From the NCBI GenBank assembly GCA_038230095.1, contig JBBRNT010000001.1:48848-112847 (forward strand): 64,000 nt of DNA. Direction: 5' to 3'. Positions 5,313 to 51,892 of the stretch are shown here, piece after piece. Both the position numbers and the translations under genes were made by a program. The stretch is from Candidatus Saccharimonadia bacterium. GTDB lineage: Bacteria; Patescibacteriota; Saccharimonadia; UBA4664; JBBRNT01. Position 1 is the first letter of the stretch. Each line of letters opens with the position of its first letter. The notes under the pieces were generated by a model. It saw nothing but the letters and a program-made list of their open reading frames with translations. It had not been told where the DNA came from and ran no database searches.

Positions 5313-5405
5313 GGAGAGGTACCCAAGTGGCTGAAGGGGCGGGTTTGCTAAACCTGTAGGGGGGAGTAATCCCCCGCGAGAGTTCGAATCTCTCCCTCTC
5401 CGCCA
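5313..5405 (+). tRNA. tRNA-Ser (anticodon GCU), long variable arm, CCA encoded
   Basis: The acceptor is GGAGAGG/CCTCTCC. The anticodon loop is TTGCTAA. The T-loop is GTTCGAATC. Confidence 0.9.
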
Positions 5406-5507: not shown

Positions 5508-6092
5508 GTGAACCAAGAGTCAGACAAATCCATCGAGAACGAGCCCGACGAAGTCATGCCAGGGCATCTGACAGCCGGGCTATCTACTGATGTTGGCGAG
5601 GTAGATGAGCAGGATGAGGTGCGTGAGGTGGACCCGGAAGAGACATTTTCCTGGCAAGCGTCGGAGTACATACACCACGACAAGACGAAGCAGTGGTACA
5701 TAATTGTGATTGTGGGTGCGCTGGCTCTGGCTGCTGGCCTGGCCGCGTTCCAGCAGTGGTTTAGCATACCTGTCGTTATTGCCATGGCTGCCGCTATTGT
5801 TGTTTACGGGGCGCGTGCACCACGCGTACTCAACTACTCCCTGGATGATCACGGTATTACTATCGAGGGCAAGAGCTACCCATACTCCCAGTTTCGTTCC
5901 TTTGCCGTTGTGCAGGACGTAGCCTGGCACTCGATAGATCTGGAGCCTACACAGCGGTTCATGCCGCGCCTCACTATCCTGTTTGATAACGATGACTTCG
6001 CGGTTATTGTGAACCTGCTAAGCGGCTACCTGCCGGAAGTGGATCGCTCGCCGGACTGGATTGAGCGATTGTCCCGCTACCTGAAGTTCTAG
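5508..6092 (+). CDS. hypothetical membrane protein (acidic N-terminus, 2 TM helices, C-terminal soluble domain)
   Basis: The ORF has a GTG start preceded by aagga. The hydrophobic segments are IIVIVGALALAAGLAAF and IPVVIAMAAAIVVYG. Confidence 0.5.
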   Translation: MNQESDKSIENEPDEVMPGHLTAGLSTDVGEVDEQDEVREVDPEETFSWQASEYIHHDKTKQWYIIVIVGALALAAGLAAFQQWFSIPVVIAMAAAIVVYGARAPRVLNYSLDDHGITIEGKSYPYSQFRSFAVVQDVAWHSIDLEPTQRFMPRLTILFDNDDFAVIVNLLSGYLPEVDRSPDWIERLSRYLKF

Positions 6093-6162: not shown

Positions 6163-6239
6163 GCGCTCGTAGCTCAGCTGGATAGAGCATCAGCTTGCGG
6201 TGCTGGGGGTCGGGGGTTCGAATCCCTTCGAGCGCACCA
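6163..6239 (+). tRNA. tRNA-Arg (anticodon read as GCG), CCA encoded
   Basis: The cloverleaf has acceptor GCGCTCG/CGAGCGC, D-arm GCTC..GAGC, anticodon stem TCAGC/GCTGG with loop TTGCGGT, and T-loop GGTTCGAATCC. ACG would be the more usual Arg anticodon, so the anticodon call is moderate. Confidence 0.8.
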
Positions 6240-6457
6240 GAGGCCTGTAACCAATTCGTTGGTAACAGGCCTCTGTTTTTGTTTGTGGGATGAGAACCCC
6301 CGAAAAGCCGGGTACTCACGGCGTGGGGTTCGGCGTAGGGCGCAGTCGCGGCGGAGCTGGCTTCAAGAACCTGCGCCCGGAGAAGCACGAATGTGCGCTA
6401 TCCCTTCGAGCGCACCAGAGGCCTGTAACCAATTCGTTGGTAACAGGCCTCTGTTTT
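6222..6457 (+). repeat. 58-bp direct repeat (6222..6279 and 6400..6457: last 18 nt of tRNA-Arg plus its terminator hairpin) flanking a ~120-bp insert (6280..6399)
   Basis: The sequence atcccttcgagcgcaccagaggcctgtaaccaattcgttggtaacaggcctctgtttt occurs twice, identically. Confidence 0.85.
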
Positions 6458-6473
6458 GTTTAGGATAGGGGTA

Positions 6474-8033
6474 ATGCGAGAAACTCCTTCACCAGCGGCG
6501 CGGCGTAGTCAATTATGGCTCTACATCCTGGCCTGTACCGCCTTTGTGCTCTGTGCACTGGGGATAGTCTGGGCGGCCTATGGTCGAGTAGAGCTGAACG
6601 GCAGCGGGAATAGGCTTATTCTGGCGAACTACCGTGATGACTTCATCTACAACTCCCTGGTTGCTAGCGGGGAGTTCTGTCGGCACAATCTGACAACAGC
6701 TATTCCAGAGGGGGGCTGCCGCATTAACCTGATCTGGTCTTTTACCCACCTCTTGTATTTCAACCAATCGGTTGCGCTGGCCGGCTTGTTGCTGCGCACT
6801 CTACTCTTTGGGTTAATCGCGACTGCCCTCCACGTGTTTGCCAGGCGCTGGTCCAGGGCCGCTGGGCTCCCAGAAGGGCGGGCCAGGCTGTGGCTGTTTG
6901 CCTTGGCTATGACGGCGGCCTATCCGCTGATCCTGGTGGCACCACGCTTGGACTACCATGAGTTTAGTGTCTTTTTGTCTCTCATCTCATCGCCGCCCAA
7001 TTTATTTTCGGCATTGGCCTATTTGGTGGTATTTGGCGGTTACTACCTGGGGCGTCACAAGCCGAGTACTTGGCCCATCTGGGGTGGTCTGGCAGGCATA
7101 TGGTTGTTTATCCACCCTTACTTTGTGTACCAGTGGGTAAGTCTAGTACTGGTCTGGGCCTATCTGGATAGGCGGACGCTCCGCGACCACTGGGGTAAGC
7201 GTTTGCTTCTGCTCGTGCCATCGACAGCAGCCATGCTCTACTACCTGTGGCTCGCACGGGTGAACCAATTCTTCAGATTCCACCTAGGAACCAATGTGAC
7301 TCGTTACCCGCTTAGCCTCTTGATTGTTCTGGTGGTGACACTAGTCGTGTATGGCTGGCTCAGCGTGAGGATAATCCGGCGTGGTACAGCTATGGCTGAG
7401 CGATCGACACTCCGACCGGATGGGTACCTCCTGAGCTGGGCGGTGGTGGTTGGGGTGTGGCAACTAGTTCCGATAGCCACCCAGATCCGTGGACTACTCC
7501 TCCTAAGCCTGCCACTGGCACTCCTACAGACGCAGCTGGTAATTCGATCCGGCGTGCGGTCCTATACGCGCCTGCTCCTTGGGGTGGTCGCGCTTAATTG
7601 TCTGCTCCTCTTAGGATCACTTATGAGCTACGAGCGACAGTATCTGGGTCCGGATACTCGACAGGTCACCCTGACCAGTGAAGACCGCGACCTAGGACTG
7701 TGGCTTGGAGCACCACCACAGAAGCAGGAGTATTTTGTGGGAACGGAGACCGCGAGCAGCCGCTTCATGTGGTTGTCACAGACCCACATTGTGAATACCC
7801 AGCAGCATGAGAGCCAGTACTTCCCCTGGTGGCACGAGCTAGATAAGCAGGTACGCCAGGGAGCTGGATCCTGCGACAAGGTAGCGCTGGGTATGAATAC
7901 GACCCATGCCAGCGGTGAGATTGCAGCCAAGTTCCGGGACCGGGACTGGATTACATTTATGCAGAGCTGTGGAGCACCGGTACGCTTCGAGAACGCGTCC
8001 TGGGTGGTCACTGGCGCTCCAGCGGCCAGGTAG
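6474..8033 (+). CDS. large polytopic membrane protein with C-terminal soluble domain; function unknown
   Basis: There are more than 10 hydrophobic helices. The start is chosen at ATG 6474 (RBS aggatagggg) rather than the TTG at 6456, which lies inside the repeat. Confidence 0.5.
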   Translation: MRETPSPAARRSQLWLYILACTAFVLCALGIVWAAYGRVELNGSGNRLILANYRDDFIYNSLVASGEFCRHNLTTAIPEGGCRINLIWSFTHLLYFNQSVALAGLLLRTLLFGLIATALHVFARRWSRAAGLPEGRARLWLFALAMTAAYPLILVAPRLDYHEFSVFLSLISSPPNLFSALAYLVVFGGYYLGRHKPSTWPIWGGLAGIWLFIHPYFVYQWVSLVLVWAYLDRRTLRDHWGKRLLLLVPSTAAMLYYLWLARVNQFFRFHLGTNVTRYPLSLLIVLVVTLVVYGWLSVRIIRRGTAMAERSTLRPDGYLLSWAVVVGVWQLVPIATQIRGLLLLSLPLALLQTQLVIRSGVRSYTRLLLGVVALNCLLLLGSLMSYERQYLGPDTRQVTLTSEDRDLGLWLGAPPQKQEYFVGTETASSRFMWLSQTHIVNTQQHESQYFPWWHELDKQVRQGAGSCDKVALGMNTTHASGEIAAKFRDRDWITFMQSCGAPVRFENASWVVTGAPAAR

Positions 8034-8229
8034 CCGACCCAGGCTGGTCAAATACAGGTCTAGGCGGTACAATACGACGGTATTTTTCGCCGTTATCTGT
8101 GAATGTACTGAACTGATAGCCGAGCCAGACCAAGCCGAAGGCTGTGTGGCGAGGCATAAGGAAGAACCGCATGAAACCTGGAGTACATTGATTGCCAATG
8201 TATGGAAGGTGAAGCTGCGGTTATGACGC

Positions 8230-10773: not shown

Positions 10774-13326
10774 CTAGCCAACGGAAGCGATTTGTTCAGC
10801 GAGCTTGGTAGCTATAAGTGATGCCTCGGCCTTGCGCGCCATAGTTTGCTCACGGATATGATCTGGGAGGCGGTCGTTTGCTAGCTGCTTATCGAGCTTT
10901 TCCAGATAGGCGGTTTTTTCGGCTAGTTCTGATTGCAGCCTAGATTTGTAGTCGTCGATGCTAGATTTCTCAATATCGAGCCAGGCATTGGGGCCGGCGT
11001 AGTTAATAGCCAGGCCCTTGCCTTTCTCGGAGTATTCGAGTGAGCCTAGCTTGGCTAGGCCCTGAATAATATCGGCGTTCTCTCCTATTAGCTCCTTTGA
11101 GGAATGAACCAACTTTGGCTTTGCTAAGCCAAGAGCTATAGACTGGATACGGATGGCTGAGACCAAATCAATGATTGTTTGGAAGGTTTTGGCGTCGGCA
11201 GGGTATGACTTCCCTGTCTCAGGCCAGGCGGATACAATTAGATTTTGCTTTTGCCAAGCCATTTGCTGCCAGATTGCCTCGGTCACGAACGGGGCTATGG
11301 GATGGGCGAGCTTTAATATTGTCTCGAGGCAGTGGGCGAGAACATCTATATTCGTTTCAGCTTTGCTAGCCTCAATGTACCAGTCGGCAAAGTCGTTCCA
11401 CAGCAGGGAATAAACAGCCTGGCCCGCCTCAGAGAAGCGATAGCCCTCTATGTCTTTGGTGATCTGCTTGGTAGCGCCTGCCAGCTTAGTCAGGATCCAT
11501 TTATCGGCAAGCGACTTTGGTTCGGGAGCAGTGGGGGAGTAGTTCTCTGGGAGCTTCTCGATAATGAAGCGGGCCACGTTCCAGAGCTTGTTGCAGAAAT
11601 TGCGATAGCCCTCGATCTTTTCGACAGATAGGGAGCCCCCGGTACCGGGAGTGACACCAATGGTAAGGGCTAGTCGCAGGGCGTCAGTGCCGTACTTCGA
11701 GGTCATTTCGAGAGGATTGATGACATTGCCCTTGGACTTGGACATTTTTTTGCCAGCCGCATCATTGACAGTGCCCCAGAGGTAGACGTCTTTGAACGGT
11801 ACCTGGCCGGTGCGATAAATGCCAAACATGATCATGCGTGTCACCCACAGGTAGAGGATGTCGCGGGCGGTGGCCATGACTGAGGTAGGGTAGAACTGGT
11901 CGAAGTCGCCGGTGGCCATGAGGGTGGCGTAGGGCCATTGACCAGATGAGAACCAGGTGTCGAACACATCGGTTTCGGCCTCGTAGCCGCCCGGGCCATA
12001 GGTCTTGATAGCCTCGGCCTCATCAGTTGCCACGATGTACTCAGGTAGGGAAGTGTCGGTGGTGGCATTGTAGTAGATAGGGATGTGGATGCCAAACCAG
12101 TTCTGGCGACTAATGTTCCAGTCGTGCAGGTTCTCGAGCCAATCTATAGCCTGCTTCTTGAAGCGCGTAGGGTAGAACTGGATCTCATCTGACTGGATGG
12201 CAGCAATGGCCGGCTTTTTGAGCTTATCCACCTTCAACCACCACTGATCTGTCACGAGGGGCTCAATGAGCGTACCGCAGCGATCATGGAAGGCGACAGA
12301 GTGGGAATAGTTCATATCCACATGGTCCATGAGGCCACGTTCCTGGAGATCGTGGGCGGTAGCGGCGCGAGCGTCGGCGACAGTCATGCCGGCGTACTTG
12401 CCTGCTAATGAGGTAAGGAGGCCGTCGGTACCAATGACTTGCTTTACTTCCAGATGATGGCGCTGGCCCATCTCCCAGTCGTTGGGGTCGTGGGCAGGGG
12501 TGACCTTGACCACACCGGTGCCGAACTCTGGAGCGACAAAATCGTCGCCGATGACCTGGAACTTCACAGGCCCGAGTAGGTCTTCGGCCTGAATGGTGGT
12601 GCCGATGAGCTTGTTGTATCTGTCGTCCTTAGGATTGACGGCAATAGCCGTATCACCGAACTTGGTCTCGGGGCGGACGGTGGCGATGACAAATGGGCCG
12701 TACTTGATGTAATAGAGGGGATCGAGCTGCTCGCGGTACTTCAGCTCAATGTCGGAGAAGCTCGAGCGGCAGTGGGGGCACCAGTTCACAATCCGGGCAC
12801 CGCGGTAGATAAGGCCGTCTGCGTGCATGCGGCGGAACGTCTCGTAGACGGTAGTAAGGATGTCTGCATCGAGGGTGAACTGGAACTTGGACCAATCCAC
12901 GCTGAAGCCAAGGCTGCGTAGCTGGGTGGTGACATTGCCCATATTTTGCTTGGTAAATGCCAACGCAGCGTCGTAGAAAGGCTCGCGGCCCAGATCAAAC
13001 CGGCTTTTACCCTCGGCAGCCAGGACGCGCTCGTAGACCACCTGGGTCTCGATACCGGCGTGGTCGGCACCCGGGAGCCAGAGGGTCGGGCGGCCTTGCA
13101 TGCGGGCATAACGAGCAAGAACGTCTTCCACCAGGTACATGGCGTGGCCAGCATGGAGATTGCCATTGGCGTTGGGCGGGGGCATAATGATAGAAAATGG
13201 CTCTACAGAGCCCTTACCAGCACGTAAAGCAGCATTGCCCTCCGGCGTAAAGGCGCCGGACTTTTCCCAGAGATGGTAAATGTCGGCTTCGTATTTGCTT
13301 GGATCGTAGGCTTTATCGAGTGGCAT
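10774..13326 (-). CDS. valS: valine--tRNA ligase
   Basis: The class I aaRS motifs are PPPNANGNLHAGHA and KMSKS. The length (850 aa) and the C-terminal coiled-coil are typical of ValRS. Confidence 0.9.
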   Translation of the reverse strand: MPLDKAYDPSKYEADIYHLWEKSGAFTPEGNAALRAGKGSVEPFSIIMPPPNANGNLHAGHAMYLVEDVLARYARMQGRPTLWLPGADHAGIETQVVYERVLAAEGKSRFDLGREPFYDAALAFTKQNMGNVTTQLRSLGFSVDWSKFQFTLDADILTTVYETFRRMHADGLIYRGARIVNWCPHCRSSFSDIELKYREQLDPLYYIKYGPFVIATVRPETKFGDTAIAVNPKDDRYNKLIGTTIQAEDLLGPVKFQVIGDDFVAPEFGTGVVKVTPAHDPNDWEMGQRHHLEVKQVIGTDGLLTSLAGKYAGMTVADARAATAHDLQERGLMDHVDMNYSHSVAFHDRCGTLIEPLVTDQWWLKVDKLKKPAIAAIQSDEIQFYPTRFKKQAIDWLENLHDWNISRQNWFGIHIPIYYNATTDTSLPEYIVATDEAEAIKTYGPGGYEAETDVFDTWFSSGQWPYATLMATGDFDQFYPTSVMATARDILYLWVTRMIMFGIYRTGQVPFKDVYLWGTVNDAAGKKMSKSKGNVINPLEMTSKYGTDALRLALTIGVTPGTGGSLSVEKIEGYRNFCNKLWNVARFIIEKLPENYSPTAPEPKSLADKWILTKLAGATKQITKDIEGYRFSEAGQAVYSLLWNDFADWYIEASKAETNIDVLAHCLETILKLAHPIAPFVTEAIWQQMAWQKQNLIVSAWPETGKSYPADAKTFQTIIDLVSAIRIQSIALGLAKPKLVHSSKELIGENADIIQGLAKLGSLEYSEKGKGLAINYAGPNAWLDIEKSSIDDYKSRLQSELAEKTAYLEKLDKQLANDRLPDHIREQTMARKAEASLIATKLAEQIASVG

Positions 13327-47639: not shown

Positions 47640-47728
47640 GGAGAGGTCGCATAGTTGGCCTAGTGCGCACGCTTGGAAAGCGTGTATGGGGCAACCCATC
47701 GAGAGTTCGAATCTCTCCCTCTCCGCCA
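47640..47728 (+). tRNA. tRNA-Ser (anticodon GGA), long variable arm, CCA encoded
   Basis: The acceptor is GGAGAGG/CCTCTCC. The anticodon stem is CACGC/GCGTG with loop TTGGAAA. The T-loop is GTTCGAATC. Confidence 0.9.
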
Positions 47729-47769
47729 AGAAAAGACCCTGACGAAAGTTGGGGTTTTTTCTTGGGCAG

Positions 47770-47884
47770 GGATAGATGTTATGAGAACTCTCGGGGGAGT
47801 TCGGCATAGGGCGATCACGCGCAGGAGCTGGCCCCGAGCATGTGAGACCGGAGAAGGGCTTTGCCCGCTCTTTCCCTCTCCGCC
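47770..47884 (+). repeat. ~100-bp element homologous to the insert at tRNA-Arg (6280..6399), ending in a 13-bp direct repeat of the tRNA-Ser(GGA) 3' end (47872..47884 = 47716..47728)
   Basis: Shared blocks are atgagaac, GGGG(a/t)GTTCGGC(a/g)TAGGGCG, GGAGCTGGC and CCGGAGAAG, plus a compensatory hairpin. Both elements are followed by a tRNA 3'-end copy. Confidence 0.7.
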
Positions 47885-47919
47885 AAAGCAGCGCCCCAAG
47901 CTAGTCTCGGGGCGCTGCT

Positions 47920-49026
47920 TTATTGGTTCAGCCTAAGCTCTGTTTTGCCCACTGGCTTGAGCGAATCAACCATCTTGATGAGTTCCGGAAGGAACGATGG
48001 GTTGTAGGCCATCCCGTTTACGCTATCGAATGATAAGGCGATGATGGTGTCGCTACGCACTAGATAGAAGCTGTGGTTTTGCGAGCGGGTGGCGGGGGTG
48101 CTGTAGAGCGTGTAGCCACCCGGGGTAACGACCGGGGTAGGGCAGGGAGGATAGACGCTGGGGTAGTGGTAATTTGTCCCAATGCCATCACCTAGCTCAA
48201 TGGCGAAGAAGATATGGTTAACATCGCAGTTAGTGGGTGGCTTTATGGCTGCCGCGTAGCTGTCGAGCATTTTCCCGACGGCAAAGGCTATGGACTGGCG
48301 CCGGCCCGGCCCATCGAGGTGCGCCTGCAGGCTTGGTTGGTAGCTTGACACGGAGGATAGCTTTGGATCTCTGATAGTAAAGCCGGTCGGCAGGTAGCCT
48401 GGTAAATAGGGCTGGAAATTAATGCGCCTAAGATTGTCGGCCTGTGTGGCCGTTTCTTTGATAGCTCTTTGCTGCCTGGCGCTACTTTCCAGGGTGGCAA
48501 TTACATTGCTGGCGCTACCAAGTGCAACGATTGATACAATAATGAGCAACAGGTGAGTCCTTAGGCTGGTGGTTGCGCTATGGAGTAAGGCATAGGCAAG
48601 ACCATAGGTGGCGGCATTGATAACAACTAATAGTGCTAGATAAACAATCGGCGAAGTGGCTTGGAGCCAACTGCCGGATACAGATAAGTAGAGCATGATG
48701 CTCGCGGCGCCCGACATAACAAATGCTCCCCGGTAGCGAAGCATGCGTAGCGCAAAGCCAGTAACCAAGAAGGCCCCGACAAACGATGCACCAATGAGCA
48801 GGGGGGCTACAACAAGGCCAATGGCAAGCCCAGAAAGGCCGCTAAACAGACTACCACTCTGGCGGATTGCCACGTTGGCAATGAGAATACGTAGCCCAAC
48901 GAGTATGCCTATTCCGAGCGGCGATAGGGCGAGGAGTAAGCGCCATCCAGGCTGGGGCTGTGTGGGCGGTGGATTGGTTGGCAGGCTCATGGAGATAGTA
49001 TATAGCGCGTGGATAAACATAACCAC
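47920..49026 (-). CDS. polytopic membrane protein with C-terminal extracytoplasmic domain; hypothetical
   Basis: About 7 TM helices are followed by a ~190-aa soluble domain. Confidence 0.45.
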   Translation of the reverse strand: MVMFIHALYTISMSLPTNPPPTQPQPGWRLLLALSPLGIGILVGLRILIANVAIRQSGSLFSGLSGLAIGLVVAPLLIGASFVGAFLVTGFALRMLRYRGAFVMSGAASIMLYLSVSGSWLQATSPIVYLALLVVINAATYGLAYALLHSATTSLRTHLLLIIVSIVALGSASNVIATLESSARQQRAIKETATQADNLRRINFQPYLPGYLPTGFTIRDPKLSSVSSYQPSLQAHLDGPGRRQSIAFAVGKMLDSYAAAIKPPTNCDVNHIFFAIELGDGIGTNYHYPSVYPPCPTPVVTPGGYTLYSTPATRSQNHSFYLVRSDTIIALSFDSVNGMAYNPSFLPELIKMVDSLKPVGKTELRLNQ

Positions 49027-49091
49027 AGTAGGCGTATATTGACGCGATAGAACTTCAGCTATGTAATAGAGGCATAACTGTGGAGTCGGTC

Positions 49092-49406
49092 ATGAAGGGT
49101 TTTATCGAGTTTGTGCGCAAGGCTGGGGTGATTGGTCTGGCGGTAGCATTTATCCTGGGCGCAGCTATTACCAAGATTGTGACGTCGCTCGTCGAAGACA
49201 TTATTAATCCCATAATTGGTATTATTCTTGGCAGGGTTAATCTGGCTAGCCTGTCGATAGACATTGGTGACGCACATATAAAGTATGGCTCGTTTATTGG
49301 GCATGTTATTGATTTCATGATTGTGGCAGCGGTGGTGTACTTCGGTGTCTCCGCGCTCAAGCTAGATAAGCTAGACAAAAAGGAAGAGGAAAAAGCTGCT
49401 GAATAG
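49092..49406 (+). CDS. mscL: large-conductance mechanosensitive channel
   Basis: The N-terminus MKGFIEFVRKAGVIGLAVAFILGAAITKIVTSLVEDIINPIIG matches the MscL TM1 signature. The C-terminus is charged (KLDKKEEEKAAE). Confidence 0.9.
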   Translation: MKGFIEFVRKAGVIGLAVAFILGAAITKIVTSLVEDIINPIIGIILGRVNLASLSIDIGDAHIKYGSFIGHVIDFMIVAAVVYFGVSALKLDKLDKKEEEKAAE

Positions 49407-49523
49407 TTAAATAGTATTGACAAATAGGCCATAATAGTATATTATGGCCTATTCTTTGTGTTGGTCATGTATGACGACGAAGGATGAACCTACCCGACAG
49501 ATTGAGTACCCTTGGAGGGATCA

Positions 49524-49904
49524 ATGAAGAAGAGCACGACCATCCGCACTACCATGACCGGTAAGCCGGTCACGAAGGCCAAGCGACCAATCAACGTTCG
49601 CCGTTGGCGGATGGAACACGGTTACTGCGAGCGCAGTCGCCGCGAAGGCGATCGCAGTATGCTGCACAGCATTGAGGTCGGCGTCCTGCGCCACCACTGG
49701 CTCATGGCCCGTCAGAGCATGGCCGAGTCACTGCCCGAGCTGATGGCTGCGCAGGCCGACGGTCGCCTGGTGACCCCTGGCAAGAGCCGCCGCCGTGACG
49801 TGTTCATTCAATTCGACTGCCCCTGCGGCGACATCTACACGGTGGAGATCGTCGATGGGGTGGCCCACGTGAAGCGCGTCCGCCGCAACGTGGCGATGCG
49901 CTAG
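49524..49904 (+). CDS. hypothetical basic protein with CPCG motif
   Basis: RBS ggaggg is present. The start is at MKKSTT. Confidence 0.4.
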   Translation: MKKSTTIRTTMTGKPVTKAKRPINVRRWRMEHGYCERSRREGDRSMLHSIEVGVLRHHWLMARQSMAESLPELMAAQADGRLVTPGKSRRRDVFIQFDCPCGDIYTVEIVDGVAHVKRVRRNVAMR

Positions 49905-49914
49905 CCCCGGTAGG

Positions 49915-49960
49915 TTCTAGGACCGGTATTTGCACAACATTGTGCATTGCCGGTCCTTTG
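49915..49960 (+). terminator. terminator-like nested hairpin (ggaccgg..tgcacaacattgtgca..ccggtcc + ttt)
   Basis: The inverted repeats are read directly from the sequence. Confidence 0.5.
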
Positions 49961-50281
49961 ACTTTCTACCCAAGAAAACATTGACAGAGCATAACAAGCA
50001 TAGTAAAGTGTGTTTATGCGTAGAGCATCTATATTCAAGTCAACCAATATTTCGCATATGTCGTGGGCCTATCTGGCCGGCGATACCTTTGCGTACGACT
50101 TGTCTTGTAATGCTTAACCTCACCATCTAGCTGATCCAGACAAGTCTCCGAGCACACGGAGGCTTTTTTGATTCTTTGACTTGAACCAGATGCTCCCTCG
50201 GAGGCTTTTCTGGTTTAGTGAACCTAGACCACGGCGCCAGCGACCGATTCGCTGGAGAACCCTGACAATTTGGAGGAAGTA

Positions 50282-51127
50282 ATGTCGTACGAACAAACGG
50301 CAACGGTCTACGATGCCATCTACACGAAAATGAAGGACTATCCTGCGGAAGCTCGCCGAGTGATTGAGCTCTGGGAGGTATTTGCTGGTCCTGAAACCAC
50401 ACTTCGGAGTGTTTTGGACGTTGCCTGTGGCACTGGCCTGCACCTGGAAGCCCTGCGTACTATGGGTATTGACGATCTGACGGGATTTGACCTGTCAGAA
50501 GCACAATTGGCAGTAGCCAAGTCCCGGCTGGGGAGCAAATTTCACCTGGAACTGGCCGATATGACGGATTTTGGTATGGGCCGCTACTATGACCTGGTGA
50601 CGTGTCTGTTCTCAGCGGTTGGCCACTTGCCAACGTTTTCGGCGCTCTGCCAAGCCATAGAGGCGATGGCAAGCCATCTGGAACCGGGCGGCATAGTCAT
50701 GATTGAGCCTTGGATTGACCCTGACGACTTTCGAGAGGGACATGTCGGCATTAATGTCGTGGACACACCAGAACTGAAGGTGTTGCGGATGGGTACCAGT
50801 ACCCGCGAGGGCAACTTGATTCATTTGGAGCTAAAGCACATTGTGGGCCGACCTGGGGTAGCCATGGAGGACTTTTCGGAAACGCACCAGCTGATGATGT
50901 TCAGTAAAGCAGAATTTGAAGCGGCGTTTTCGGTGGCTGGGCTATCCTGCCACTTTGACGAGCAAGGCCTTATGGGCCGTGGCCTGTATATTGGCGTAAA
51001 GGCACAAAACAAGACTATGAGCTGGGGTCAGCAGCATGTCATGGCTGAGCACCTGGCCGATGAGATTGATGGCAGGCTGCCCACTAGCCCGTCGTTTCAG
51101 CAATCCTACCAGAACTTTACAGACTAG
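50282..51127 (+). CDS. class I SAM-dependent methyltransferase, TylM1/DesVI-like aminosugar N,N-dimethyltransferase family
   Basis: It is collinear with TylM1. Shared motifs are YDAIY..KDY..EA, VLDVACGTGLHL, YDLVTCLFSAVGHL, VMIEPWIDPDDF, STREG, MFSKAEFEAAFSVAGLS and GRGLYIG. RBS ggagga is present. Confidence 0.7.
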   Translation: MSYEQTATVYDAIYTKMKDYPAEARRVIELWEVFAGPETTLRSVLDVACGTGLHLEALRTMGIDDLTGFDLSEAQLAVAKSRLGSKFHLELADMTDFGMGRYYDLVTCLFSAVGHLPTFSALCQAIEAMASHLEPGGIVMIEPWIDPDDFREGHVGINVVDTPELKVLRMGTSTREGNLIHLELKHIVGRPGVAMEDFSETHQLMMFSKAEFEAAFSVAGLSCHFDEQGLMGRGLYIGVKAQNKTMSWGQQHVMAEHLADEIDGRLPTSPSFQQSYQNFTD

Positions 51128-51136
51128 GAGACTGAA

Positions 51137-51817
51137 GTGTTTGGACACTGGATGGAGATAAAGACTCCAAAAGTACATGTGCGGATGGGACCGATCAGAC
51201 GCGAGGAAATGCCGCGGTTTGTGTCGGCGGATGTAGGCTTTGGCCTGCAAAGCTATATGGTCGGCCGCTACCTCGGACACGATCGAGCTACCACTGAGGA
51301 AGCTGAGTATGCTTGGTGGGACTCGGTGATTGCCGATAAGACCAAAGTGGTCTGGGGCATCTATGTCCAGATGGATGGCAGGTGGACAGTGATTGGCTGT
51401 ACCTCGCTAGATCTGGATGGCTTCGACCGCAACCAGGCATGCAGCGGATTTGCCATGTTTGACCGCCAGTATTGGCGCCGTGGCATTGCCAAGACAAGCC
51501 ATCTGGCCCGGACGCTCTATGCGTTTGAGGAGATGGGTATGTGGGCGATCAATAGTGGGGCTGATACGGCGAACTTCGGTTCGGTCAAAGCCCTACAATC
51601 GGTTGGCTATGTCCAGACCGGTATGCGCTACGGCGGCAAGATGGTACATGGCAAGGCGCATGACGCTATGACGCTGTTGGTAGTAAACCCTGCGCCCAAT
51701 ATGTGGAACGCCTTCTGGAACCGGCCCAAAGCCGAGATCCCGCCAGAGTTCCACGAGGCGCGGAAGGTGACGCGAGCTGCACTCCAGCAAGCCCACCAGT
51801 TCGTGACCTTCCTCTAA
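51137..51817 (+). CDS. GNAT-family N-acetyltransferase
   Basis: The acetyl-CoA binding region is FDRQYWRRGIAKT. A GTG start is inferred. Confidence 0.6.
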   Translation: MFGHWMEIKTPKVHVRMGPIRREEMPRFVSADVGFGLQSYMVGRYLGHDRATTEEAEYAWWDSVIADKTKVVWGIYVQMDGRWTVIGCTSLDLDGFDRNQACSGFAMFDRQYWRRGIAKTSHLARTLYAFEEMGMWAINSGADTANFGSVKALQSVGYVQTGMRYGGKMVHGKAHDAMTLLVVNPAPNMWNAFWNRPKAEIPPEFHEARKVTRAALQQAHQFVTFL

Positions 51818-51855
51818 TTACCTGATTACACTGCAGCGCTTGCTTGCGCCCCGCC

Positions 51856-51892
51856 CCGCGGGGATCCCTTTTTGGGATCCCCGCTTTTCTTT
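51856..51892 (+). terminator. terminator (gcggggatccc ttttt gggatccccgc + ttttctttg)
   Basis: An 11-bp perfect stem is followed by a T-run. Confidence 0.75.

Follow-up and report, generated by a model that had tools for sequence, protein, structure and literature searches.

The tRNA genes for Ser, Arg and Lys are favourite integration targets, and the cis-mobilizable elements (CIMEs) of streptococcal integrative and conjugative elements (ICEs) are integrase-less derivatives of integrative elements. When a tyrosine integrase of the T-loop class is involved, the identity between the attachment (att) sites starts at the 5' side of the T loop and covers at least 23 nt. In a different group of systems the target is addressed by RNA: the omega-RNA of TnpB and IscB consists of a scaffold and a guide copied from the flanking DNA, and the bridge or seek RNA of the IS110/IS1111 insertion sequences (IS) carries guides to both strands of its target. 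Here we describe a short element that follows the tRNA-Arg(GCG) gene in a 64,000-nt stretch of a Candidatus Saccharimonadia bacterium (assembly GCA_038230095.1, contig JBBRNT010000001.1, positions 48,848 to 112,847; this whole stretch is referred to as the window and numbered from its first letter). The element carries a second copy of the 3' end of its tRNA, which is a module of the element and not simply a target duplication. It is one member of a Saccharimonadia family of structured, tRNA-matched elements, which is real and apparently undescribed; the literature searches returned no account of such an element. We would give an even chance to the reading that the element is a tRNA-linked structured RNA, the tRNA-derived end of which is periodically re-copied from the neighbouring gene.

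The tRNA-Arg(GCG) gene (6163..6239, plus strand) is complete, with its CCA encoded (ARAGORN; Rfam tRNA model, 62.8 bits), and its T arm reads GGGGG-TTCGAAT-CCCTT. A repeat search finds the last 18 nt of this tRNA (ATCCCTTCGAGCGCACCA), followed by a terminator-like hairpin and a T run, twice on the plus strand. Copy 1 (6222..6279) comprises nt 59-76 of the tRNA, the hairpin and the T run; copy 2 (6400..6457) comprises what we call segment c and a second, identical terminator hairpin (6416-6453). This is an exact 58-nt direct repeat, and an exact repeat of that length within 64 kb excludes an origin by chance. The copies start 178 nt apart, are separated by 120 nt (6280-6399) and, past a 1-nt indel, agree over 4 further bases (GTTT). 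The hairpin of copy 1 has its stem arms at 6238-6254 and 6259-6275 (17 bp, GC-rich); a single A.A mismatch in the stem is the probable cause that a simple terminator scan left it unflagged. An earlier sequence-only reading of the window had reported the identical duplication of tRNA end and terminator, and had taken the insert at tRNA-Arg to be homologous to one at tRNA-Ser(GGA); both observations are borne out. The tRNA-Ser(GGA) gene (47640..47728, plus strand; ARAGORN and Rfam) is followed by a second family member of 117 nt (47769..47885, plus strand), detected by nhmmer (E = 3e-27) and by a covariance model (58.8 bits). This member is also present in an independent assembly, the Logan assembly of run SRR19962015, which reproduces window positions 47705-51863, the whole Ser(GGA) copy included, at 99.93% identity. 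Two independent short-read contigs of the same organism (L036 and L146) end inside tRNA-Ser genes, at window positions 5349 and 47705. The break point is the T arm and 3' end common to the Ser isoacceptors and the Ser-type elements, and these repeats thus fragment assemblies.

The loci of relatives were retrieved by synteny, through homologues of the open reading frame (ORF) upstream of tRNA-Arg in metagenome-assembled genomes of Saccharimonadia (TM7); these loci and the hits of one metagenome pattern scan make up the family set, all of which was searched with nhmmer and the covariance model. There are at least eight clear homologues and about five diverged or decayed ones, all in Saccharimonadia (TM7) contigs, and their hosts are five tRNA species: Arg, Ser(GGA), Ser(GCT), Ser(CGA) and Lys. 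Every copy lies on the strand of its tRNA and starts just past the terminator hairpin of that tRNA, approximately 45-85 nt after the CCA, and the element measures about 115-140 nt across the family. At tRNA-Arg in the window, the 120-bp insert and the repeated tRNA end make up a single non-coding unit of about 130 nt (6280-6417). The clear members after tRNA-Arg are those of the window (ArgW, 6283-6417, plus strand), of contig L070 (ArgL070, 2256-2392) and of contig L068 (ArgL068, 5767-5838, cut by the contig end). The remaining clear members follow tRNA-Ser(GGA) in the window (SerGGA-W, 47774-47885, plus strand), tRNA-Ser(GCT) in L070 (SerGCT-L070, 1131-1245), tRNA-Ser(CGA) in L069 (SerCGA-L069, 2732-2869) and tRNA-Lys in L108 (Lys-L108, 1638-1770, minus strand) and L119 (Lys-L119, 1642-1774); the host of the Lys copy belongs to the Saccharimonadales, judged from its DnaJ. 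Further members came from a scan for each tRNA's own T-stem sequence downstream of it, together with weak model matches: decayed or diverged ones after tRNA-Ser(GCT) in L068 and after tRNA-Arg in L071, and diverged ones with a different core after tRNA-Ser(GCT) and tRNA-Ser(CGA) in L138.

The T-stem scan also finds short forms after tRNA-Ser(GCT) and tRNA-Ser(CGA) on the reverse strand of L071. These are homologous to each other and consist of an antisense T-arm strand, about 40 nt, and then GGCGAAGCC, which resembles the hairpin P3 described below, with GCCA; from their sequence they look like internally deleted derivatives of the family. Directly after tRNA-Ser(CGA) of L080, and without a separate terminator, lies a P1-like hairpin (10868-10925; AAGTTCGAACCCCGG ... 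CTGGGGTTCTTGGCG), the stem of which agrees with the Arg-type T stem and not with the T stem of the Ser tRNA beside it. This hairpin could be either a family remnant or simply a terminator.

The occupancy of a given tRNA gene varies between relatives. The tRNA-Arg element is present in the window, L070, L068 and L071 and absent from L069, L080 and L145; the tRNA-Ser(GCT) element is present in L070 and absent from the window, and the tRNA-Ser(CGA) element is present in L069 and absent from the window and L070. The homologues after the same tRNA-Arg in L070, L068 and L071 agree with the sequence-only reading that a local duplication or an assembly artefact is unlikely; they are also the very outcome that it had named as weakening its own interpretation of the insert as a mobile element. 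The protein beside the Ser(GGA) locus has no homologues on record. Scans of larger collections relied on strict patterns, which in the metagenome scan were too strict for a family with fast-diverging cores. The pattern GTTCGGCRTAGGGCG N8-12 GGAGC returned 35 loci from the genome collection, all protein-coding or due to chance; the metagenome scan returned 57 loci, with L108 and L119 as the only real members. Five scans of viral contigs gave no real member, and BLAST against phages and plasmids gave no match to the element.

Read side by side, the copies follow a constant plan of four modules, segment a, segment b, a core and segment c. Segment a (GGGATGAGAACCCCCGA, 6287..6303, plus strand) is antisense to the T arm of its own tRNA (6210-6226), with which it forms an inverted repeat of 17 nt and 88% complementarity. 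Its sequence reads (A)T-NN-GAAC and then continues with the complement of the T-stem 5' strand, and it is antisense to the cognate tRNA in other copies too; five clear copies, the window Arg copy among them, have GA in place of TC opposite G57-A58. Segment b (GGGGTTCG, 6325..6332, plus strand), recognized by reading the sequence against the cognate tRNA, repeats the T-stem 5' strand together with TTCG (tRNA positions 50-57) and forms the 3' strand of helix P1 by pairing with segment a. Its variable T-stem bases agree, lineage by lineage, with the cognate tRNA (GGGG, (A/G)GAG, TGGG and TGGG). Segment c (6400..6417, plus strand; from the repeat search and the comparison with the cognate tRNA) is in the window an exact copy of tRNA nt 59-76. 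The match to the cognate tRNA is 18/18 for ArgW, 16/18 for SerGGA, 17/18 for SerGCT, 18/18 for SerCGA and 12/13 for Lys, against roughly 40-60% of positions for non-cognate tRNAs (10-11/18 for ArgW); the Ser segments reach 14-16/18 with other Ser tRNAs too, most of the stretch being common to these tRNAs.

In every copy, the identity with the tRNA ends at G57 in segment b and restarts at 59/60 in segment c, and the core thus occupies the place of the T-loop residue A58. Segment c itself differs in extent. It runs through the CCA and the terminator in ArgW and through the CCA in SerGGA, SerGCT and the L069 copy, measures 10-13 nt in ArgL070 and the Lys copies, and only 7-8 nt in L071 and L138; AT and the T-stem 3' strand are the only part that is constant across copies. 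The Ser(GGA) member shows the same order: a lead, P1 (ATGAGAACTCT...GGAGTTCGGCAT), the core and then segment c as (T)CTTTCCCTCTCCGCCA. Its tail, TCTTTCCCTCTCCGCCA, equals the last 17 nt of its tRNA with one mismatch and is followed by a different terminator of its own (47886-47925). At the Arg locus of L070, window positions 6410-8064 are missing, that is, the 3' half of segment c, the terminator and an ORF of 519 aa (6474-8033; a membrane protein with no Pfam match), and 50 nt (2385-2434) stand there. This gap most likely arose by deletion in L070. An insertion in the window was considered as the source of the shorter L070 segment c and set aside, the deletion giving the best fit.

The core and the T-arm-matched segments a and b together form a multi-helix junction. 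Helix P1 (6290..6336, plus strand; ATG-A-GAACCCC ... GGGGTTC-GG-CGT) is found in minimum free energy (MFE) folds, in pair counts and by RNAalifold, and encloses a variable inner hairpin (6301-6324). Helix P2 (6338..6378, plus strand; GGGCGCAG / CTGCGCCC) encloses a CGCGCA-like strand, the hairpin P2b (6353-6364, plus strand; GGAG-CTGG-CTTC) and a GAGCA-like strand; P2 and P2b are both supported by compensatory changes across copies. They are followed by a purine strand, GGAGAA, conserved in alignments A1-A4 (J23, 6379..6384, plus strand) and by the hairpin P3 (GCAC-GAAT-GTGC) with a conserved GCT (6385..6399, plus strand). P3 covaries across copies, with the stem variants GGAC/GTCC, GGGC/GCCC and CAGCAAC/GTTGCTG. 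The order after segment b is accordingly GGCRTAG; P2 around CGCGCA, P2b and GAGCA(TG); (C)GGAGAAG; P3; and GCT, in which the junction strands GGCRTAG, CGCGCAGGAG, GAGCA and GGAGAAG are conserved. In the RNAalifold structure, the GGAG of J23 pairs with the start of segment c (pairs 95-98:126-129). The sequence TGTGCGCT ahead of segment c was considered as a tRNA 5' end and rejected, as it is the 3' strand of P3 and covaries in other copies. The window and L068 Arg copies share the variable inner hairpin of P1 (GCCGGGTACTCACGGC and GCCATGTACTCATGGC, respectively), which indicates that the window Arg copy is old.

The helices are maintained by compensatory substitutions, which argues that the fold is under selection as a single strand. 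In alignment A3, for which eight copies were aligned by segment and from which the aligner returned the N-padded rows without column shifts, the proposed helices comprise 34 counted pairs, and 89.9% of the cells hold a standard pair. Double-sided changes occur in 13 pairs (30 cells), none of 500 shuffles reaches any of the five measures, and sliding the 3' partner by 1-3 columns as a control leaves 26-45% of the cells paired. On alignment A4, RNAalifold recovers P1, P2, P2b and P3 unaided, together with the helix between J23 and segment c. Between ArgW and ArgL070, 7 base pairs differ and 7/7 still pair, most of them by changes on both sides, in two genomes that share only 67% identity in the neighbour protein and have unalignable flanking spacers. 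The MFE fold of ArgL070 shows the whole junction (z = -3.25), and the L069 and Lys copies reach z values of about -2. A plus-strand RNA fits the G.U wobbles found on that strand in P1 (L068, L119) and in P2b (ArgW, L069). Between the Lys copies of L108 and L119, 8 sites differ, and their excess in unpaired columns is not significant (P = 0.26).

We therefore prefer the view that the structure acts in single-stranded form, most simply as a read-through RNA from the promoter of the tRNA. The plus-strand RNA would be the folded strand. The gap between the tRNA terminator and the element measures 5-15 nt and a promoter search within it gave no match, from which we infer that the element RNA would be made by read-through transcription. 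Segment c would be copied from the adjacent tRNA gene and would then decay from its 3' end, such that the spread of its lengths among copies could reflect decay between re-copying events. Recent copying from the adjacent tRNA gene would explain why a perfect 58-nt repeat stands beside a long-diverged core; in the window, segment c may have been refreshed by a gene conversion or duplication that ran through the terminator. As to what the RNA does, its likeliest action would be base pairing with the cognate tRNA, or with its gene, through the antisense T-arm strand, and the split T-arm copy (segments b and c) would be the intramolecular partner of that strand.

Several results weigh against this interpretation. 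The element lies behind a strong terminator and shows no promoter match of its own, and the two window copies are no more stable than shuffled sequence (z = +0.17 and +1.37). Alignment A3 was hand-fitted to the proposed structure and holds 7-8 sequences from 5-6 independent lineages, so that the pair statistics lean towards the structure. The A.C mismatches of P2b in the Ser(GGA) and Lys copies would be G.U pairs on the minus strand, and thus the wobbles alone leave the strandedness unsettled. Some copies are decaying, with P2 broken in the Ser(GCT) copy of L070 and both P1 and P2 lost in that of L068. The patchy presence and the spread to five tRNAs would fit a selfish element equally well, and the model provides no route by which segments a, b and c come to match a new tRNA.

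A more far-reaching proposal, which we find improbable, is that of a tRNA-programmed RNA: the antisense strand would dock at T-loop position 58, the split T-arm copy would hold an inactive state, and the core would do the work, as a small ribozyme or as a scaffold for protein binding. One form of it would be an RNA-guided element capable of inserting or copying itself at tRNA genes with no recombinase in the vicinity. Alternatively, the host might use the RNA to modify or cleave one specific tRNA, or to replace a damaged 3' part of it by splinting. We know of no precedent for programmable base-pairing recognition of a tRNA T arm. The element has a likeness to omega-RNA and bridge RNA: its scaffold of about 110 nt leads into a 3' stretch that equals a genomic target over up to 18 nt, a conserved TTCGA stands just 5' of that stretch in the tRNA gene, and its segments address both strands around T-loop position 58. 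Unlike these systems, the element has no adjacent gene for TnpB, IscB or a DEDD recombinase, no IS ends and no Rfam match, and in many copies its 3' stretch is truncated (7-13 nt in L070, the Lys copies, L071 and L138) while the fold persists. A tnpB or iscB gene was found neither in the window (8 ORFs) nor at the Lys locus, and nothing identifies the element as of the IS200/605 type. An IS110 bridge RNA does not fit either, as a recombinase is missing and the fold is a multi-helix junction and not one with two internal loops. The resemblance, seen by analogy, is architectural only.

Two further groups of RNAs invite comparison. Like the tRNA-like RNAs (the tRNA-like domain of tmRNA, the YrlA/Y RNA module, mascRNA, viral 3' structures and split tRNA halves), the element has a T stem and an acceptor 3' strand ending in NCCA, and a multi-helix junction with a single-stranded 3' tail. 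In contrast to them, it lacks the acceptor 5' strand, the D arm and the anticodon arm, its T arm is split by a core of 65-75 nt and clamped by an antisense strand, and its sequence is specific to the neighbouring tRNA instead of generic. With T-box leaders the element shares specificity for one tRNA and, in some copies, a terminator that follows; it differs in carrying sequence identical to the tRNA and not complementary to the anticodon or NCCA, in the lack of a specifier loop and a T-box motif, and in downstream genes that are unrelated or absent.

Searches for a known identity agree with these differences. In Rfam 15, no match over 6280-6417 or 47769-47885 is credible at E up to 10, only tRNAs passing the gathering score; the Rfam tRNA and tmRNA models do not match the element, and ARAGORN calls only five tRNAs in the window and does not call the element a tRNA or tmRNA. 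A T-box has no Rfam match here, and the genes downstream are unrelated or on the other strand. Hammerhead and twister ribozymes, group I and II introns and retrons were considered and rejected, their core motifs being absent and Rfam matches lacking. A small protein gene was also rejected: the 57-aa ORF at 6290-6463 has neither a conserved frame nor a conserved start codon, the ATG of ATGAGAAC being ACC or ATT in the Lys and L069 copies and the reading frame relative to GTTCGGC differing between the Arg and Ser(GGA) copies. In all, the element belongs among the tRNA-gene-associated elements, with a modest chance that it is something categorically new.

The sequence-only reading had interpreted the duplicated tRNA end as the footprint of an integrase, that is, an att-like scar. 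A related Saccharimonadia lineage provides an integrated element at the same gene: an ICE abuts the 3' end of tRNA-Arg(GCG) in contigs L073 (10652-20600), L075 (917-10700) and L076. It encodes a large serine recombinase of 562 aa, an M78 peptidase/helix-turn-helix protein, a DNA methylase, a Replic_Relax relaxase and a coupling protein of a type IV secretion system (T4SS). The recombinase ORF extends 50 nt into tRNA-Arg, and the junction at the tRNA holds an inverted repeat (GTTCGAAT ... 24 nt ... ATTCGAAC). Between this ICE (L073/L075/L076) and the insert, neither nhmmer nor the covariance model gives a match, and no displaced fragment of the tRNA-Arg 3' end was found at the far end of the ICE in L073 or L075.

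As a passive integrase scar the element is disfavoured by its three separate tRNA-matched segments, its conserved compensatory helices and its conserved unpaired junction motifs, and further points leave the scar interpretation unsupported as stated. No recombinase lies in or beside any of the 7 loci examined in detail: Pfam finds no recombinase, transposase or nuclease in the 8 neighbouring ORFs of the window, no recombinase is listed beside the copies in the gene tables of L068-L071, and the neighbours of the Lys copy are housekeeping genes only (DnaK, DnaJ, ATP-grasp and NUDIX). The length of the repeat ranges from 7 to 58 nt among copies, the CCA end is missing from at least two of them, and neither the antisense T-arm strand nor the T-stem 5' strand, both matched to the element's own tRNA, is explained by att duplication. 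What survives of the mobile origin is that some duplicative or site-specific spread is still needed, as the family occupies at least five tRNA genes and is patchy among relatives. Such spread would come naturally to a miniature non-autonomous integrative element, an explanation that we consider possible, though rather unlikely. Here, a unit of approximately 178 bp (tRNA 3' end, terminator, segment a, P1, segment b and core) would recombine within segment c and thereby replace the 3' end of the tRNA, by means of a recombinase encoded elsewhere in the genome, and the fold would be of use to the element, for instance as a recombination site on a folded single strand or as a guide RNA. The unit is indeed flanked by direct repeats of the tRNA 3' end (58 nt, exact, for Arg; 17 nt with one mismatch for Ser(GGA)), as in tRNA-gene islands, and repeats at both ends without a recombinase recall CIMEs and miniature inverted-repeat transposable elements. 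Like the att repeats of tyrosine-integrase and P4-like islands and like CIMEs, it repeats the tRNA 3' end not far past an intact tRNA gene and leaves the tRNA functional, and its occurrence at the same tRNA is patchy among related genomes. Five tRNA genes are occupied, tRNA-Arg(GCG) is, with the serine-recombinase ICE at its 3' end, a proven integration hot spot in a relative, and decaying displaced tRNA 3' copies (those of L070, Lys, L071 and L138) are expected of an attR remnant. The explanation is set back by the missing recombinase gene, by the ICE at the same tRNA sharing no sequence with the insert, and by segments a and b, which islands and CIMEs do not have. The unit spans only about 120-180 bp, and its interior is a conserved, covarying multi-helix fold and not a set of remnant genes. 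The identity of the repeat starts at nt 59/60 in every copy and not at 54; a crossover could then have taken place only in the T-stem 3' strand or the acceptor region, whereas a T-loop-class tyrosine integrase would be expected to give identity from the 5' side of the T loop onward. Within the available sensitivity, phage, plasmid and viral collections did not contain the core. No full-length element with the sequence of the insert was found among phages, plasmids and viral contigs or in the strict-pattern scans of genomes and metagenomes, and the data searched showed no autonomous relative. Finally, the P1 inner hairpin common to the window and L068 Arg copies suggests descent in place and not repeated insertion.

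That the copies are non-functional relics of old tRNA 3'-end duplications or decayed integrated elements, with incidental hairpins, seems to us quite improbable. Decay is visible in the two Ser(GCT) copies mentioned above (L068, and P2 of L070), about half of the copies have a truncated segment c, the folding z-scores of the two window copies are unremarkable, and the 8 differences between L108 and L119 show no significant excess in unpaired columns; against this, homologous cores persist at different tRNAs and across the divergence of the ArgW and ArgL070 genomes, all seven base pairs changed between these two copies remain paired, the 13 double-change pairs and the shuffles (0/500) speak for the helices, and the unpaired junction motifs are conserved. 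It is very unlikely that the element is a cis-regulatory leader, in which a tRNA mimic would attenuate the downstream gene by regulating the terminator after segment c. In the window, the plus-strand ORF of 519 aa begins at 6474, 17 nt past the second terminator, an ORF follows at 8 nt in L069 (2916) and another shortly after the Lys copy. However, the gene next to the Ser(GGA) copy is convergent with it, a further RNA-like region and a tRNA come after the Arg copy of L070, and segment c is not followed by a terminator in the Ser(GCT) copy of L070 and in the Lys copies. The genes downstream bear no relation to one another (the membrane protein without Pfam match, a polysaccharide deacetylase and a NUDIX protein), Rfam gives no match to a T-box or other leader family, and the present sample already suggests no correlation with a plus-strand downstream gene. 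An assembly artefact or trivial tandem duplication confined to this assembly is scarcely credible: a perfect 58-nt repeat does fit within one read length and the independent assembly covered the Ser(GGA) locus only, but homologues of the insert occur in seven other assemblies, the Ser(GGA) copy was reproduced, and each of the four repeat junctions has a sequence of its own that the reads must contain.

Some features of the surroundings deserve mention in their own right. The anticodon of the arginine tRNA at this conserved locus is GCG in all Saccharimonadia contigs examined, whereas ACG is usual in bacteria. Upstream of tRNA-Ser(CGA), approximately 160 nt (window 8065-8228; L070 2435-2594) are about 80% identical between spacers that are otherwise unalignable. 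This stretch is rich in complementary segments (GAACCGC ... GCGGTT) and has no Rfam match at E up to 5, and it may be another conserved non-coding RNA or a leader. In L073, L080, L138 and L145, a T4SS cluster adjoins the tRNA cluster that hosts the element, upstream of HSP20-ComF-tRNA; in these relatives it comprises TrbL, PrgI, TraC-like and TraG-like proteins and five T4SS pilin genes.

For the delimitation of genomic islands, the family matters in that repeats of tRNA 3' ends are routinely read as integrase footprints, a reading that would be wrong or incomplete here. Should the element be mobile, tRNA sites would host a unit that is much smaller than any integrase island and has matched recognition segments of its own, and the question would be what moves it. 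Saccharibacteria are episymbionts with few known regulators. If the element is a functional RNA, it would add a lineage- and tRNA-specific structured RNA to their very small genomes, and a tRNA gene would serve as the sequence donor for a neighbouring non-coding element.

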